This document shows, in pieces, positions 7,519 to 49,176 of a stretch of 64,000 nucleotides of DNA (position 1 is the first letter of the stretch; the number at the start of each line of letters is the position of its first letter). Made by a program: the position numbers and the translations under genes. The notes under the pieces are model-generated. The model was not told the origin of the DNA. It saw nothing but the letters and a program-made list of their open reading frames with translations, and made no database searches. Origin of the DNA: a virus; the IMG/VR virus record IMGVR_UViG_3300050821_001858, positions 49,067 through 113,066 of that record, one strand, 5' to 3'.

Positions 7519-7715
7519 TGTTTAGTAATGAAGATAGAGACTATAAAAATCCTCAGATGTTGACTTCTACTCCACATACAGTTGGAGCGAAATGTTTAGA
7601 AATTGATGTGATGAAGTCGTATAATATAAGTTTTCCTCCTATACAAAATATATGGGGAGGATTTTATCAAACTGTGTCTGTGATAAGATATCTTCGTCAG
7701 TTTTTTGATGAATAG
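7515..7715 (+). CDS. Micro-ORF family hypothetical protein
   Basis: Ends ...FFDE; stop overlaps the tRNA-Trp 5' end. Confidence 0.5.
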   Translation: MMFSNEDRDYKNPQMLTSTPHTVGAKCLEIDVMKSYNISFPPIQNIWGGFYQTVSVIRYLRQFFDE

Positions 7716-7787
7716 GTGTGAGCCGGTGGCGGTGCAGGAAACTCCAAATCTCCATTGCCGAGGGTTCGACTCCCTACACACCTGCCA
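7714..7787 (+). tRNA. tRNA-Trp(CCA), atypical
   Basis: aggtgtg/cacacct, ggaaa-ctCCAaa-tctcc, G73 and CCA. Confidence 0.8.
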
Positions 7788-9863: not shown

Positions 9864-10892
9864 TTCGTCTTTGGACGGATTAGGGCAAGCCCCCCTGAAT
9901 GTGTGGGTATTAATATCAGAAAGTGTGTTATCACAAGGTAGTGTACACTACCTACCTACCGGGAGATAGGTACGCAAGCCTATCTCCCATTTAAAATTAT
10001 CAGATGTATTACAGATTGGGGGCATAGCCTCGTCAGGATAAGCCAGGGTGACTTGGTAAAAGCGGTAAGTCTTCCTACAGACCCGCACTATTAGCAATAA
10101 TAGCCCATCTATGCAGGTCCGGTCTTCCCCGTGAGGGGCAATCGATGGCATCGGTTGTAAAGCAGGACGGTTAGGTAAGGTCGAAAGATAGGTTCGAGGG
10201 TAACACTGTAGAGCCAAGTCCCGAAAGGACACCTTACGTTCAAACTAACTTACTGTGTATAGATAACGGATAGTGGGATACAGAGCATGAGACTTGCAAT
10301 CTAATGCGACCCGCAAAATGGAGGATAATGGCTGACGTTAACACAGTCGGACAGCATCCAAGAATTTGGTTTAGTAGCTCGCAAGGCGAAGGACAGTTGC
10401 CGTGTTGTATTTGGTACCTCAAAAGGGTATTGAGCAACAGTCGCAGCACGTCAAGTAGGTTTCCGATAATTGAAACTAGGTGTTTCAATCTCACTGTGAA
10501 TGAGATGTCGGTTGGTTCAAATCCAACTTATCATGCAGAAAAAGCAAAGTCTGCGACTGTGTTGAATGAAAGTGGTTTAATCCTATGAGTCCTTTGGACT
10601 AACATAGGGGATTTGTTACTCGCAAGGTGACAGTCTTTGATAGCGTGATTTGTCATAGAGGGTTAGCCCCCTCGAATAGCTCGCAAGGCTAGTGGTGAAA
10701 AGCATGTCGAATAGTTCAACATGAAAGAGGTACCGCCCCCTCTATAATCAAGGCAACCATGTGACGATACTGGATAGTTGTCCAGTGGAAATCGGGGAAC
10801 CTTTCTTAAATGTGCGCTCCGTCGCCGCATCCCTCGCAGGATGGAGGATAATCCCGTAAGTTGTCATGTAGAACCCGTATTCTCAGGGTTTT
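9864..10892 (+). ncRNA. Large structured ncRNA, GOLLD-like (5' boundary uncertain)
   Basis: About 1 kb with no credible ORF inside a tRNA array; many GNRA-capped hairpins (ctcgcaagg x3); gtgttgtatt..gtacctcaaaagggta..gcaac and terminal gtattctcaggg segments resemble GOLLD from memory. Confidence 0.65.
10463..10536 (+). tRNA. tRNA-His(GTG)-like domain embedded in the large ncRNA, no CCA
   Basis: gataa/ttatc, tctca-ctGTGaa-tgaga, gttgg-ttcaaat-ccaac. Confidence 0.65.
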
Positions 10893-11429: not shown

Positions 11430-11528
11430 GCCTCGGTAGCTTAGAAAATAGAGCGCATCCCGTTTAATATTCATATGGTGGATATTGGGAGGGGTGAGAC
11501 GTAGGTGAAATACCTACCAGAGGCACCA
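11430..11528 (+). tRNA. Non-canonical tRNA-like RNA with greatly extended anticodon arm
   Basis: gcctcgg/cagaggc, nearly the same T-arm gtaggtgaaatacctac, ACCA. Confidence 0.65.
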
Positions 11529-12547: not shown

Positions 12548-12554
12548 TTTTAAT

Positions 12555-12629
12555 GCGTCTGGACGCTGCTAGTGTGGCGACTCCCCTGTCACGGGAGCGA
12601 GCGGGGAGCGTAACCCCGTAGACGCGCCA
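12555..12629 (+). tRNA. tRNA-Asp(GTC), atypical T-loop
   Basis: ctccc-ctGTCac-gggag, G73. Confidence 0.82.
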
Positions 12630-16130: not shown

Positions 16131-16207
16131 AGCGCGGACAAGCTTCGGTAGGCTGGCATGTCTCATAAGCATGTGTAAAGTGGGTTCGACCCCCACCTGC
16201 GCAACCA
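16131..16207 (+). tRNA. tRNA-Met(CAT), 1:72 mismatch (initiator-like)
   Basis: catgt-ctCATaa-gcatg. Confidence 0.8.
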
Positions 16208-16463: not shown

Positions 16464-16721
16464 ATGATGAAGTGGTTTATGCTTGAAGGAAAGTATTGCG
16501 TTTTGTTTTATATCATGATGGCAATCTGCTTCCAGATGGGTTATTTGTCTGGCATTGGTTTCCTCACAGTTTTATCATCGATCCTTTGGACTGTGGTTAT
16601 CCTTTTTGGATGTGTATTGTTATCGTCCTATCTTATGGTTTTAGATTATAAGAAATATCGAGCAGCGCAAATTCTTGCGGCTCAAGAGGAACGGGATTTA
16701 AAAGAGCAGGCGGGAGAATAA
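16464..16721 (+). CDS. Membrane protein
   Basis: Two hydrophobic segments. Confidence 0.65.
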   Translation: MMKWFMLEGKYCVLFYIMMAICFQMGYLSGIGFLTVLSSILWTVVILFGCVLLSSYLMVLDYKKYRAAQILAAQEERDLKEQAGE

Positions 16722-16723
16722 TA

Positions 16724-17380
16724 ATGCGTAAGATTTTGGAGATATCGCAGGCAGAGGGCGGGGAAGACTCCCGTTTATTTGCGCACGACCTTTTTAATGC
16801 CTATCGTAAGCTATGCGAGCGCATGGGTTGAAGAGGTACCCCCGTAGGGGAACTTATTTTACAGATTGACAACTGTGATGATCGCATATACAATGAGATC
16901 GGTGGTCATCGAATTCAACGTGTCCCCCCGACAGAAAGACGGGGACGTGTTCATACGTCTACTGTTACAGTGTCGGTGACTGATGAATTGAAAAATGACT
17001 TTAAGATCAATGAGAAGGATTTGAAAGTTGACTGGTTTTCGGGGTCCGGTAAAGGCGGCCAACATCGTAATAAACATCAAAACTCCTGTAGACTTACTCA
17101 CATACCTACAGGAATTACTCAAAAAGCCGAAGCTAGAGATCGACAAACGTCTTATCGCGAAGCATTTCAGGCATTATCTTCACTTCTACAATCTAGCCGG
17201 GCGTATCAGGCGACCGTTAGCCAAAGCAACATTCGACGGGACCAGATGGGCAGTGGAATGCGCGGTGACAAAAGAAGAACCTATCGCTTCCAAGATAACA
17301 TTGTAACGGATCATGAATTAGGTACAAAGAGTACTTGTATTGATCTAATGAATGGAAAGTTTGAAAAGATATGGTCATAA
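16724..17380 (+). CDS. Compact class I peptide release factor (RF1-like PxT, GGQ) with an in-frame TGA at codon 36
   Basis: ILEISQAEGGEDSRLFA..L..AY, then TGA at 16829-16831, then EIGGHRIQRVPPTE..GRVHTSTVTV...GSGKGGQHRNK...RGDKRRTY, all in one frame. Confidence 0.85.
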
Positions 17381-17550
17381 CACATGAATATTATGAGACA
17401 GAGAATGTCAAAGAACGTGCACTTGATGTATTATTGAATGTATTAGGAGCGAATATCTATAGGTCTATAGGACGTATCTTTCCTATTGTTCCTGACATGT
17501 ATTCTTATAATCATTATGTTACTATAATAGAAGAAATAATGCGGGTATAG
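17371..17550 (+). CDS. Micro-ORF family hypothetical protein
   Basis: 59 aa, FP..P motif, stop lies inside tRNA-Gly. Confidence 0.5.
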   Translation: MVITHEYYETENVKERALDVLLNVLGANIYRSIGRIFPIVPDMYSYNHYVTIIEEIMRV

Positions 17551-17615
17551 CATAACGGTTTATGTGCCTGATTGCCAATCAAGCGTAGTGGGTCCGACTC
17601 CCTCTGCCCGCACCA
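17541..17615 (+). tRNA. tRNA-Gly(GCC)
   Basis: ttGCCaa loop, gcgggta/tgcccgc. Confidence 0.85.
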
Positions 17616-18382: not shown

Positions 18383-18649
18383 ATGAACGACGTGTTTGTG
18401 AAAACTTTCATTATGGGACGTATGTTGGACAAGATAGTGGAATTTGTTCCATTGTCTGAAAGACAACTGCTATTGATTACTAATCAACCGCCCCCTAATT
18501 TTATTCAATCTAGGGCTCCTAATAAGGTTATATTTCTTTCTCAAGGAGGAAAGATAAACATCATACCGACTGGCATGATCCAACATTGGACCTGGGCTGG
18601 TTCGAGGGCTCTAAAAGCTTATACAACAAAATGGTTTGCGTATGAATGA
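18383..18649 (+). CDS. Hypothetical protein
   Basis: SD AAGGA. Confidence 0.5.
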   Translation: MNDVFVKTFIMGRMLDKIVEFVPLSERQLLLITNQPPPNFIQSRAPNKVIFLSQGGKINIIPTGMIQHWTWAGSRALKAYTTKWFAYE

Positions 18650-19337
18650 TCTAACTGTAAAGAATTTTACGTATGTGGTCGGAGATATCCATGGGATGTA
18701 TGGCCAGATGCATCAATTGGTCGAGGCTTGTCTGGGACATGCCAAACATTATTCAATGCATCCGAAATTTGTATTTCTTGGAGATTATATTGACCGCGGA
18801 CCAAAGTCAAAAGAAGTTATCCAATACTTAATCGATTTCCCCCATGATAAAGTTTGTCTCATGGGAAACCATGAAGATATGTGTCTTGATTGGGGTAATC
18901 AGAGTATGTGGAGAAATAACGGTGGTATGAAGACCGAAGAATCATACCTACCGCAAGGTAGGGTATTGGATGAACATAGAGAATGGATGCGTCGCCTACC
19001 CCTTATTCATGAGGATGCACACCGCATTTATGTTCATGCTGGTTTAAATGATCAATGGTCATTAAAAGAACAGGTAAGAAAGGATATGCTTTGGATTAGA
19101 AATGCTTTCCTTTTGTCTGATCATGATTGGGGTAAACTTGTGGTTCATGGGCACATGCCCTACGATCCTAAAGATTTCCCTCAGTGGGGAATTGATAAGG
19201 TTCGTCTTAATCTTGATACTGCTTGTGTGTATGGTGGTTCTTTGACCGCTGCCTTCTTTAATGATGAACAGCGTAATCCCATCGGATACATTCAAGTTGA
19301 AGCTGATAACGTCAACAAGTATACTCAAGGAGTATAG
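18642..19337 (+). CDS. Ser/Thr phosphatase-like metallophosphoesterase
   Basis: GDIHG, GDYIDRG, GNHE, VHAG, VHGH, LDT. Confidence 0.92.
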   Translation: MNDLTVKNFTYVVGDIHGMYGQMHQLVEACLGHAKHYSMHPKFVFLGDYIDRGPKSKEVIQYLIDFPHDKVCLMGNHEDMCLDWGNQSMWRNNGGMKTEESYLPQGRVLDEHREWMRRLPLIHEDAHRIYVHAGLNDQWSLKEQVRKDMLWIRNAFLLSDHDWGKLVVHGHMPYDPKDFPQWGIDKVRLNLDTACVYGGSLTAAFFNDEQRNPIGYIQVEADNVNKYTQGV

Positions 19338-19506
19338 AATGGACACCGCAGTTCTTAATAAAGTTGATCAAGAATTTGAATATCGTAAGAAGCGTATCAT
19401 TGATGATTTGCGTCGTCGGGGTCGTTCCGAAGAAGATATTCAAGCCCATTTGAAATGGATGGAAGAAAACCGAGATTAATACGTATACTACCTCTGCGTA
19501 TTAAAG

Positions 19507-19865
19507 TTATAGACGGACTATCGCTGTACACCTATATGGGCTACCTTCGGGTACTGTACAGAGGAAAGTCGGGGCTGCACACGAAACCGTACAAGGTAAC
19601 ACCTTGGTATTCATAACTGCCACGCTTTTATGAATGACGATTAGAGCAACAGAAAATATGTATGCTTTATATACATGCCTAGATAGAGTGGGATAAACTT
19701 GTATATAAAGGCGTAGTGAAATTGGCAATCTCTACGGGCAGCAATCCCTAATAGGTCACTAGCCTTCGTGGGCGTTACGGTGACGGGTCGGGAGCTAGAG
19801 GGTAATCGCGAGGTTACTCCCAGATAAATGATAGTACTTGACAGAACCCCGCTTATAGTCTATAA
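19507..19865 (+). ncRNA. rnpB: RNase P RNA
   Basis: GAGGAAAGTC.GGGC, ACAGAAA, GTGAAA..GGCAA, AGATAAATG, ACAGAACCCCGCTTA; P1 ttatagac/gtctataa. Confidence 0.92.
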
Positions 19866-19948
19866 TGCTACTACCTTAGAATGACCATGATATTGAACGT
19901 AACAATTTGGGGCAGTTGGTCGAGCCCCCCTTGAATTAAAGGTGATAT

Positions 19949-20141: not shown

Positions 20142-20222
20142 GCACGCATAACCCCCTCGTCTTCGAAACGAGAGAAAGGTAACTGGATGTAAATGGGGGT
20201 TCGAATCCCTCTGCGTGCTCCA
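20142..20222 (+). tRNA. tRNA-Arg(TCG) without a conventional D-arm (D-loop relocated)
   Basis: gcacgca/tgcgtgc, ctcgt-ctTCGaa-acgag, T-arm, CCA. Confidence 0.75.
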
Positions 20223-42162: not shown

Positions 42163-42450
42163 ATGATACTTCCTGAATCTTTAGTAGGTTATATTGCATC
42201 GGTCTATATTTGTCTAGCATCAGCGACCGTTTGTGATAATTCAAATGCTCTTTGGACAAATTGGGCTTATATGCGCCCTGATAATGGTATGGTCGAACTT
42301 TCGTCCCCTGAGAAATTGAAGCAGATTTGTATCGATACAATGAAAAAAAATATTCCGAAGATCAATGCTCCTTATTTTACCATGGACGGGTCGAAAGAGG
42401 GCGAGCGATTAAAAATTCGGATTGAATGCGAAAAAGGTGTTGACATCTGA
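42163..42450 (+). CDS. Cys-containing, probably secreted protein
   Basis: Hydrophobic N-terminus, 4 Cys. Confidence 0.6.
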   Translation: MILPESLVGYIASVYICLASATVCDNSNALWTNWAYMRPDNGMVELSSPEKLKQICIDTMKKNIPKINAPYFTMDGSKEGERLKIRIECEKGVDI

Positions 42451-42470
42451 CCCAAGATGCAGTATAAATA
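42440..42470 (+). promoter_or_regulatory. Combined sigma70 and T4-late promoter for tmRNA
   Basis: TTGACA-17-TATAAATA. Confidence 0.7.
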
Positions 42471-42475
42471 AGACA

Positions 42476-42770
42476 CTGGACGATTAGTTGATGGTTCAAC
42501 TAAACACGAAACACTCGGGGGCAGTACCCGATACCTCCACCAAAAGCACATACCCTACCCAAAGGGTTGTTGACAGGGTTGGAAGGATCAACGCACAGGA
42601 TGTGCTTTTGATGGGGGTAAAATAGGTTCGACTTCGTGTGGAATGGAATCGGATAGTCGGTCGGTATATAACTGTCGCATCAAACGACAACTTTGCTCGG
42701 GAACTCGCCCTCGCGGCGTAATTCCCTACGGAGTTCGGTAGCTTCCTTGGCAACAGAAAAGCTACCATTT
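42476..42770 (+). ncRNA. ssrA: Two-piece (permuted) tmRNA, tag ASNDNFARELALAA
   Basis: T-arm and ACCTCCACCA (ending 42542) precede an intervening hairpin and the GGGGGT...TTCGAC piece (42613); tag ORF 42677-42721. Confidence 0.93.
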
Positions 42771-42804
42771 CACCATGTGTTTAACGAAAATAGGAGTGTA
42801 TACA

Positions 42805-43311
42805 ATGAGTTTGAATTCGAATGTTCGTAAGTTTGACCCTGTAAAGGGTATGGCGTTTCAGGGCGACCTCGCCATCGTTCCGGTTCCGGCTTCCGTGAAG
42901 CTTAACACCGCCAACGAAATCCAGCCCAAGAACGGCTACCTTGTTCTTCTTGAGGGTGAGTTGACTGGTCATCACCATGCAATTCCGGTCCTTGAGCGTC
43001 CGACCACTCAGGTTGAGCCGAAGACCACCCCGAAGAAGACCAGCAAGACTGTTGAAAACCTTTTCGACCTTGCTACTCAGGCTCCGTCCACCGCCAAGAT
43101 GTATCGTGATGCAAACGTCGCATCAGAGATGCAGCGCCTCGGCATCCTTACCCGTACCGACCTGATTGTCGGTGTGCTTGAGGTTTCCGAAGGTAACGGT
43201 GTTATCCTTCGCCATCACGAGCATGATGGTATCCACCTTCCGAAGGGCACTTACTACATCGGTCGTCAGGTCGAAAGTGCTTTCAATGAAGAGCGCCGGG
43301 TCGCCGACTAA
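42805..43311 (+). CDS. Hypothetical protein, usual partner of DUF6745-type proteins
   Basis: QGD, EGELTGHHH, H.EH..I.LP.G.Y...RQ.E......RVAD. Confidence 0.8.
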   Translation: MSLNSNVRKFDPVKGMAFQGDLAIVPVPASVKLNTANEIQPKNGYLVLLEGELTGHHHAIPVLERPTTQVEPKTTPKKTSKTVENLFDLATQAPSTAKMYRDANVASEMQRLGILTRTDLIVGVLEVSEGNGVILRHHEHDGIHLPKGTYYIGRQVESAFNEERRVAD

Positions 43312-48976: not shown

Positions 48977-49176
48977 CACATGGAGATGTACATAAAGCGA
49001 TAATGAATGCCACTATTGACAAAATATGGCGTTTCCAAAATCAATTACCGGCTAATACAAAACTTAGTGAACTTCTTCGACGAGAAGTACAACGTACACC
49101 AACGTTTATGAATATTATTTTGCGAGATGCTAATATGGTTTCTAATATCGCAAGGGATATATTTAATGAAGACTGA
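48973..49176 (+). CDS. Micro-ORF family hypothetical protein
   Basis: Ends IFNED. Confidence 0.5.
   Translation: MTHGDVHKAIMNATIDKIWRFQNQLPANTKLSELLRREVQRTPTFMNIILRDANMVSNIARDIFNED

Follow-up and report, generated by a model that had tools for sequence, protein, structure and literature searches.

The locus described here raises the question whether a release-factor gene that is interrupted by an in-frame stop codon can still give rise to a complete protein, and how the stop codon would then be read. The gene lies on a phage sequence of 64,000 nt, referred to as the window (positions 49,067 to 113,066 of the IMG/VR record IMGVR_UViG_3300050821_001858). All coordinates are window coordinates unless a locus is named. 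The record itself is a 113-kb linear entry with an estimated completeness of ~63% (CheckV), and the window carries tail, endolysin-domain and glycosyltransferase genes.

Gene anatomy and genomic setting

For the positions of the individual features see Table 1. An ATG with a Shine-Dalgarno-like GGGAG 7 nt upstream opens a reading frame that meets a TGA at codon 36, in the following referred to as the gate. Past the TGA the same frame stays open until the TAA at 17378–17380; with the TGA read as a sense codon it comprises 218 codons. This arrangement had been described in the initial annotation, and our analysis reproduced its coordinates as well as the ribosome binding site. As also stated there, the list of open reading frames covers only the last 136 amino acids: translation table 11 yields a single piece at this locus, which starts with GTG (16970–17380). 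Two small ORFs abut the gene. One of them (16464–16721) ends 2 nt 5' of the ATG, the other one (17371–17550) starts with an ATG at 17371 and overlaps the TAA. Read-through could therefore also affect the expression of the downstream ORF.

Table 1. Features of the release-factor gene and of selected tRNA genes in the window.
Feature	Position	Strand	Basis or remark
tRNA-Trp(CCA) candidate, the only one of the phage; degenerate, A30.C40 mismatch in the anticodon stem	7714–7787	+	ARAGORN, lowered threshold only
tRNA-Met	16131–16207	+	closest tRNA of the array on the upstream side
Shine-Dalgarno-like GGGAG	16712–16716	+	7 nt 5' of ATG 16724; read from sequence
Release-factor gene, first 35 codons: start of domain 2 with EI..AEGGEDS.LFA helix	16724–16828	+	translation; Pfam PCRF (residues 4–83); dN/dS 0.10
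In-frame UGA, codon 36 (gate)	16829–16831	+	aligned with Trp of E. coli and T. maritima RF1
Release-factor gene, other 182 codons and TAA: remainder of domain 2, domain 3 (GGQ), domain 4	16832–17380	+	Pfam RF-1 (residues 91–197)
Predicted hairpin: two 4-bp stems with an A/A internal loop between them, CGUA loop	16834–16855	+	MFE -10.3 kcal/mol, z = -1.62
PPT codons, residues 68–70: RF1-type PxT tripeptide for stop-codon recognition	16925–16933	+	invariant in family alignment A1
GGQ codons, residues 111–113: motif for peptidyl-tRNA hydrolysis	17054–17062	+	G111 and G112 invariant, Q113 nearly invariant in alignment A1
tRNA-Gly(GCC)	17541–17615	+	closest tRNA of the array on the downstream side

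Apart from the gate, TGA is an ordinary stop codon in this phage. Among 142 non-overlapping ORFs of at least 80 amino acids, 70 end in TAA, 59 in TGA (42%) and 13 in TAG, and the same ORFs contain 476 TGG codons for tryptophan. A reassignment of TGA in the whole phage (code 4 or 25) was rejected on the basis of these numbers and because long ORFs are not extended by it. The gate is thus a case of local recoding, in agreement with the initial annotation. No other TGA-interrupted gene with a recognizable domain was found in the phage; three candidates had neither a Pfam nor a PHROG match. The release-factor gene is the only gene with a release-factor domain in the record.

The gene is embedded in the tRNA/translation module of the phage, which comprises at least 30 tRNA genes in an array. 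The array also contains a GOLLD RNA (10395–10889; 174.5 bits, gathering threshold 150), which overlaps a tRNA-His call at 10463–10536, and a class A bacterial RNase P RNA (19505–19871; 167.8 bits, gathering threshold 100), which is unusual on a phage. Rfam matched two further tRNAs without an ARAGORN call (20142–20219 and 11430–11525). One of them has an aberrant D region; the other one, with a length of 96 nt, carries an insertion near the anticodon. A tmRNA with the tag peptide VASNDNFARELALAA is located at 42450–42812, and a NinI-like phosphatase is encoded at 18636–19334.

The read-through product

With tryptophan at codon 36, the read-through product (P0001) has 218 amino acids and is an RF1-type class I release factor consisting of domains 2–4. 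Pfam assigns residues 4–83 to the C-terminal part of PCRF and residues 91–197 to RF-1 (E = 8e-20). The product matches positions 107–334 of the 347 positions of the NCBIfam RF1 model, with 181 bits for RF1 compared to 96 bits for RF2. It does not reach the RF1 equivalog cut-offs (181 vs. 400 bits for NF001859, 176 vs. 423 bits for TIGR00019), and the RF2 score is below its cut-off, too. Solved RF1 structures from the PDB align at E = 1e-37 over residues 4–214, beginning with residue 112 of E. coli RF1. Since the alignments start at model position 107 and E. coli residue 112, respectively, domains 2, 3 and 4 are present and domain 1 is absent. An AlphaFold2 model (18 sequences in the alignment) has a mean pLDDT of 87. 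A Foldseek search with this model gave ribosome-bound RF1 chains as the best matches in the PDB (TM 0.79–0.83); RF2 scored lower. Domain models, PDB alignment and predicted fold thus bear out the earlier assignment as a release factor that lacks domain 1 and contains the PxT motif of RF1. RF1 without domain 1 is reported to catalyze peptide release in vitro and to work in vivo, but to be unable to engage RF3 (PMC1586002).

The decoding residues of RF1 are kept in the product (HRIQRVPPTE..RVHTS), including the PPT tripeptide, the glutamine of HRIQRVP and the HTS residues. P68, P69 and T70 are invariant in our family alignment A1, and the glutamine, HTS and GGQ vary little or not at all across the family. 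As judged from these motifs, the product is predicted to be specific for UAA and UAG. The initial annotation had also considered that the product might read UGA itself, which would establish a negative-feedback loop. With PPT, the glutamine and the HTS residues all being RF1-like this is unlikely, and direct self-feedback through UGA is not expected.

The small ORF directly upstream was considered as a split-off domain 1 and rejected. It encodes a hydrophobic, membrane-like protein of 85 amino acids in another frame and has no PHROG match. The closest relatives of the product (P0029, P0084 and others) share 58–65% identity with it; the nearest relative read at the DNA level (L001) shares 56%. 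No isolated phage in the collection searched encodes a protein with more than 40% identity to the 218-residue product.

Conservation of the UGA at codon 36

In a PDB-based alignment codon 36 corresponds to a tryptophan in RF1 from E. coli as well as from T. maritima, which is the usual release-factor position that the initial annotation had assigned to the UGA. The residues on both sides of the UGA align without gaps to one RF1 domain.

A scan of IMG/VR retrieved 252 relatives, and we examined 80 loci among those listed, with identities of 47–56% on contigs of up to 524 kb. The TGA is located exactly at codon 36 in 79 of these 80 viral loci, corresponding to 76 of 77 distinct viral sequences. 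Scans of metagenomes and of species-representative genomes yielded more than 511 and 17 relatives, respectively. Eighty further loci (76 from metagenomes, four from genomes) were matched by their N-terminal motif, all of them with TGA at codon 36. The eight remaining loci were inspected by hand: six carry the TGA, one is cut by the end of the contig and one is an exception (L170, see below). Taken together, the TGA is kept in all but two of the ~160 copies from related phages and prophages, which represent at least 120 distinct sequences; this is far beyond what chance would give. After removal of duplicates there were 122 distinct 57-nt contexts. The terminator of the gene itself is TAA in 116 of the 122 distinct sequences. 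Gated copies also occur in the cultured Alphaproteobacteria Gemmobacter caeni DSM 21823, where eight tRNA genes surround the gene, Jiella sp. LLJ827 and Thalassospira xianhensis.

Pairwise dN/dS, calculated for 162 unsaturated pairs, was 0.10 upstream of the stop (35 codons) and 0.13 downstream of it, at a dS of ~0.75–1. Values of ~0.1 on both sides indicate that both parts are translated and constrained. At this level of synonymous divergence a neutral A-to-G exchange leading to TGG would have arisen many times, which argues that the stop codon itself is under selection. The comparison of homologues that had been suggested in the initial annotation, with a sense codon in all of them pointing to a recent pseudogene, had the opposite outcome. 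On these comparative grounds the conserved UGA is an intrinsic control site of the gene and not the result of damage.

The two exceptions carry TGG at codon 36, and both are interrupted again just past this codon. In L003 (3001–3663) an in-frame TGA follows at codon 38, as if the gate had moved. In L170 (3001–3664, a metagenome-assembled genome of Hahella sp.) the frame resumes via a +1 shift at CTT TAG C. This corresponds to the slippery pattern of prfB with UAG, the stop codon read by RF1; an SD-like element upstream is absent. We searched for close relatives of this frameshift variant and found none, so that it is a singleton and possibly a sequencing error.

Protein databases also contain apparently full-length forms of 222–225 residues with tryptophan at the gate. 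They fall into the same 90% clusters as pieces of 35 and 166–172 residues from longer contigs, which makes it most likely that short contigs were translated with code 4 by the gene callers. For this reason they were rejected as evidence of a sense codon. In one cluster the tryptophan form and the split pieces come from contigs of equal size.

Distant, short RF1-like genes (~36% identity) were observed in the uncultured huge phages LR756504, LR745206 and LR756501 (L081, L082 and L083). They contain one or two in-frame TGA codons at positions other than codon 36.

Sequence and structure 3' of the UGA

The initial annotation had emphasized a hairpin following the UGA. A hairpin of 22 nt (AGGU-A-CCCC-CGUA-GGGG-A-ACUU) indeed begins 2 nt past the stop codon. 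Evaluated as a 34-nt fold it is ordinary for its composition, with 17 of 200 shuffled sequences being as stable (for energy and z-score see Table 1). The surrounding 101 nt are more structured than expected by chance (z = -2.67, 1 of 200 shuffles). We looked for the hairpin in L001 and it is absent there. The location of the hairpin was hence confirmed, but its stability is weak (z = -1.6), it is missing in the nearest relative and it shows no covariation in the family.

Over ~10 codons past the UGA, synonymous change in the family is reduced to 0.43–0.5 of the expectation, compared to a median of 1.02 for the gene. The reduction is strong (0.33) in a large clade in which the next residues are T/A-T-R-L-I, and weak (0.67–0.75) in a K/I/L-type clade that includes the window. 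In the large clade a CGCC...GGCG stem is predicted 6 nt past the UGA, and it is often extended such that the UGA itself is paired. Folding of 60 distinct contexts gave z-scores below -2 in 22 cases. RNAalifold did not recover this structure but only a trivial fold of four pairs, and a model with 14 pairs (80% paired) was no better than column shuffles and had essentially no compensatory changes. The substitution pattern thus indicates a constraint at the nucleotide level just 3' of the UGA; a conserved 3' structure is a candidate for part of the family only.

The base following the gate UGA is A in 86, G in 22, C in 14 and T in none of the 122 distinct contexts. For real TGA terminators on the same contigs the corresponding numbers are A 120, T 78, C 70 and G 52. 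This bias fits a weak termination context. Alternatively, the absence of T could be due to protein constraint on codon 37 together with shared ancestry.

tRNA genes and decoding of the UGA

UGA differs from UGG by a single transition, and it is the stop codon that is misread by tRNA-Trp(CCA), as known from the general leakiness of UGA and from the A1 protein of phage Q-beta. We analyzed the tRNA-Trp genes of the phage and its relatives. The tRNA-Trp candidate in the window has no Rfam call at E < 0.1. It is a possible reader of the UGA; being degenerate, it may not function at all.

Of the 27 distinct phage tRNA-Trp(CCA) genes located up to 10 kb from the release-factor gene, 12 have no 27–43 pair at the top of the anticodon stem, compared to 100 of 802 other tRNAs (Fisher p = 6e-5). 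The trait is not specific for tRNA-Trp, as the top pair is also missing in 75% of tRNA-Lys(CTT) and 44% of tRNA-Ser(GGA). About 8% of bacterial tRNA-Trp genes are without the 27–43 pair, and in E. coli a tRNA-Trp with such a 4-bp stem is reported to read through UGA (PMC13092985).

A suppressor tRNA with the anticodon UCA was found neither in the record nor in the ~160 loci. Since the record is ~63% complete, such a tRNA could lie in the missing part. At a low threshold ARAGORN reported a 'SeC(tca)' at 12554–12628. This call was rejected as a mis-registered tRNA-Asp(GUC), which refolds canonically with U33, A37 and G73. The tRNA-Asp(GUC) at 12555–12628 has a non-canonical T-loop (AGCGTAA) and is overlooked by Rfam and by ARAGORN at default settings.

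An intergenic region outside the window (G000:C1:25187-25262; L181:1687-1760) contains a tRNA-like gene whose anticodon is CUA and whose acceptor stem is long. It is a default ARAGORN call, and Rfam detects it weakly with the tRNA-Sec model (25 bits). The loci L201, L213, L234, L242 and L258 likewise have tRNA(CUA) genes no more than 10 kb away from the release-factor gene. An amber suppressor beside an RF1-type factor is an odd pairing.

In 59 of the 80 viral loci, tRNA genes are found at a distance of up to 3 kb from the release-factor gene, and in five related loci this also applies to tmRNA genes. Recurrent protein-coding neighbours in the relatives encode phosphatases of the DSP type (74 loci) and metallophosphoesterases (49), as well as AAA_33 kinases (18) and Ro-like proteins with DUF2828/DUF7788 (15). 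Examples from the flanks of L001–L171 are L160:715-1308, L128:2847-3482, L128:188-946 and L029:1314-2735. Together these neighbours look like an RNA-repair-type module.

Proposed mechanism

Based on the conservation pattern and the domain assignment we propose programmed read-through of the UGA as tryptophan, with host RF2 and tRNA-Trp competing for the codon, as the best explanation of this locus (estimated probability ~0.7). Ribosomes would initiate at ATG 16724 and reach the UGA at codon 36. Host RF2, the sole factor that reads UGA, would usually terminate translation there and release a peptide of 35 amino acids. In a minority of ribosomes Trp-tRNA(CCA), either from the host or from the phage, would read the UGA by C-A mispairing at the third position. 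Insertion of tryptophan would restore the residue found in RF1 and lead to the full factor of 218 amino acids. Due to the competition at the UGA the output should be low by default and rise when RF2 runs short or tRNA-Trp is plentiful. The product would terminate translation at UAA and UAG, without RF3-assisted recycling.

Four other explanations were considered. Dedicated decoding would make the gate a temporal switch instead of an RF2 sensor: the UGA would be read efficiently only once a UGA-competent phage tRNA is expressed, and the factor would appear only after expression of the phage tRNA array. The location of the gene in tRNA arrays would suit such a switch. So would the frequent loss of the 27–43 pair in nearby tRNA-Trp(CCA) genes, viewed against the low bacterial baseline and the UGA reading by a 4-bp-stem tRNA-Trp in E. 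coli, as well as the anticodon-stem mismatch of the tRNA-Trp in the window. Normal 5-bp stems, however, are present in the majority of phage tRNA-Trp genes, and tRNA-Lys(CTT) and tRNA-Ser(GGA) often lack the same pair. Neither the record nor any locus provided a tRNA(UCA), with the one apparent case being the tRNA-Asp(GUC) described above. An efficient reader of UGA would, in addition, read through the 42% of the phage genes that end in TGA. We therefore consider dedicated decoding unlikely.

Much less probable still is that no read-through takes place and the gene yields the N-terminal 35-residue peptide and/or a re-initiated C-terminal fragment, but never the full-length factor. Gene callers do predict pieces of 35 and 136–172 residues. 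For re-initiation, however, neither a conserved start codon nor a Shine-Dalgarno sequence was found past the TGA in the family, and the first in-frame start in the window is a GTG at codon 83, which would remove PPT. The gap-free alignment of both sides to one RF1 domain, the replacement of a conserved tryptophan by the stop and the equal purifying selection on both sides also speak against separate products. Selenocysteine insertion, with the hairpin as SECIS element, would account for a layout that resembles bacterial selenoprotein mRNAs, in which a hairpin closely follows the UGA. It is highly improbable: the position is tryptophan in RF1 and TGG in L003 and L170, not cysteine, the hairpin is not conserved, and the record contains neither SelB nor a credible tRNA-Sec as far as our searches detected them. 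A lone in-frame stop in one contig could finally be an assembly error or the mark of a recent pseudogene. The chance of this is negligible, and the explanation is refuted because the same TGA recurs in ~160 independent assemblies, among which synonymous divergence is saturated and dN/dS is ~0.1.

Programmed read-through by tRNA-Trp leads to a further, more tentative proposal, to which we attach clearly less confidence than to the read-through itself. As the motifs of the product predict specificity for UAA and UAG, the gate is the stop codon that the product is not expected to read, and any feedback would run via RF2 and not via the product. The initial annotation had suggested that the gene senses low RF2 activity or the arrival of a UGA-reading phage tRNA. 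The locus may form a circuit for termination homeostasis in the phage: the RF1-type factor would be made only when host RF2 runs short in the course of infection or when a weak-stem phage tRNA-Trp accumulates. By taking over UAA and UAG it would leave RF2 available for UGA, the stop codon of 42% of the phage genes. The purpose of the gate could also be timing by a phage tRNA or simple down-tuning of expression, the latter being indistinguishable from RF2 sensing.

Significance and comparison with known systems

The gated family is large and widespread, as seen from the matches in IMG/VR, metagenomes and cultured Alphaproteobacteria. If read-through is confirmed, the gate will be among the most strongly conserved read-through sites known in bacteria and phages. 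It would then follow that phages adjust not only their supply of tRNAs but also the capacity for termination, and the gene would serve as a natural reporter, simple to assay, of how RF2 and tRNA-Trp compete. For annotation it is relevant that gene callers split the gene into pieces of 35 and ~170 amino acids, or appear to assign short contigs to code 4 by mistake.

The phage Q-beta offers a parallel for the mode of decoding. Its coat protein gene ends in a leaky UGA followed by A, which is read at low frequency by tRNA-Trp to give the C-terminally extended A1 protein, and both the short and the long product are functional virion proteins. In the gated gene, by contrast, the short product is a domain fragment of 35 amino acids and only the read-through product looks functional. 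A second difference is that the gate occupies exactly the codon that is tryptophan in homologues.

The product itself resembles RF1 (prfA) in its PxT and GGQ motifs, in the fold of domains 2–4 and in its best sequence and structure matches. The product differs from RF1 in that it is phage-borne, lacks domain 1, which contacts RF3 and the L11 stalk, shares ~33–36% identity with it and scores below the equivalog cut-off. As a short release-factor homologue with GGQ and no domain 1 it is also similar to PrfH (RF-H) and ArfB, and the RNA-repair-type neighbours in its relatives (phosphatases, AAA_33 kinase, Ro-like protein) recall the pairing of PrfH with RtcB2. RtcB was not seen among these recurrent neighbours. 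In contrast to PrfH and ArfB the phage factor keeps the stop-codon-reading motifs of RF1. The PrfH model gave 44 bits against a cut-off of 167 and matched the GGQ domain only, and ArfB matched at E = 0.007.

A search of the full-text literature yielded no description of a UGA-interrupted RF1 gene in phages. Papers on huge phages list RF1 and RF2 genes without an internal-UGA feature (PMC7162821), and the absence of a prfB-like mechanism of regulated recoding from the RF1 family was noted by those who reviewed the RF-H paper (PMC1586002).

A regulatory counterpart is prfB, the gene for RF2. Both release-factor genes are broken early by an in-frame UGA (codon 26 in prfB, codon 36 in the phage gene), and in both the efficiency of termination at this codon sets, or in the phage gene would set, the amount of full-length factor. 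In prfB the ribosome shifts to the +1 frame on CUU UGA C, whereas the zero frame of the phage gene continues. The phage gene has neither a CUU slippery codon nor an SD-like stimulator, and the codon in front of the stop is GGN (Gly); a prfB-like +1 site (CTT TAG C) occurs only in the singleton L170. Moreover, the phage product is of the RF1 type and is predicted not to read UGA, so control would be exerted by host RF2 and not by its own product. The proposed circuit would thus be a cross-regulated counterpart of prfB autoregulation, in which RF2 controls an RF1-like factor. Regulatory recoding of a release-factor gene is already known from the frameshift in prfB; here it would proceed by read-through and concern an RF1-type factor of a phage.
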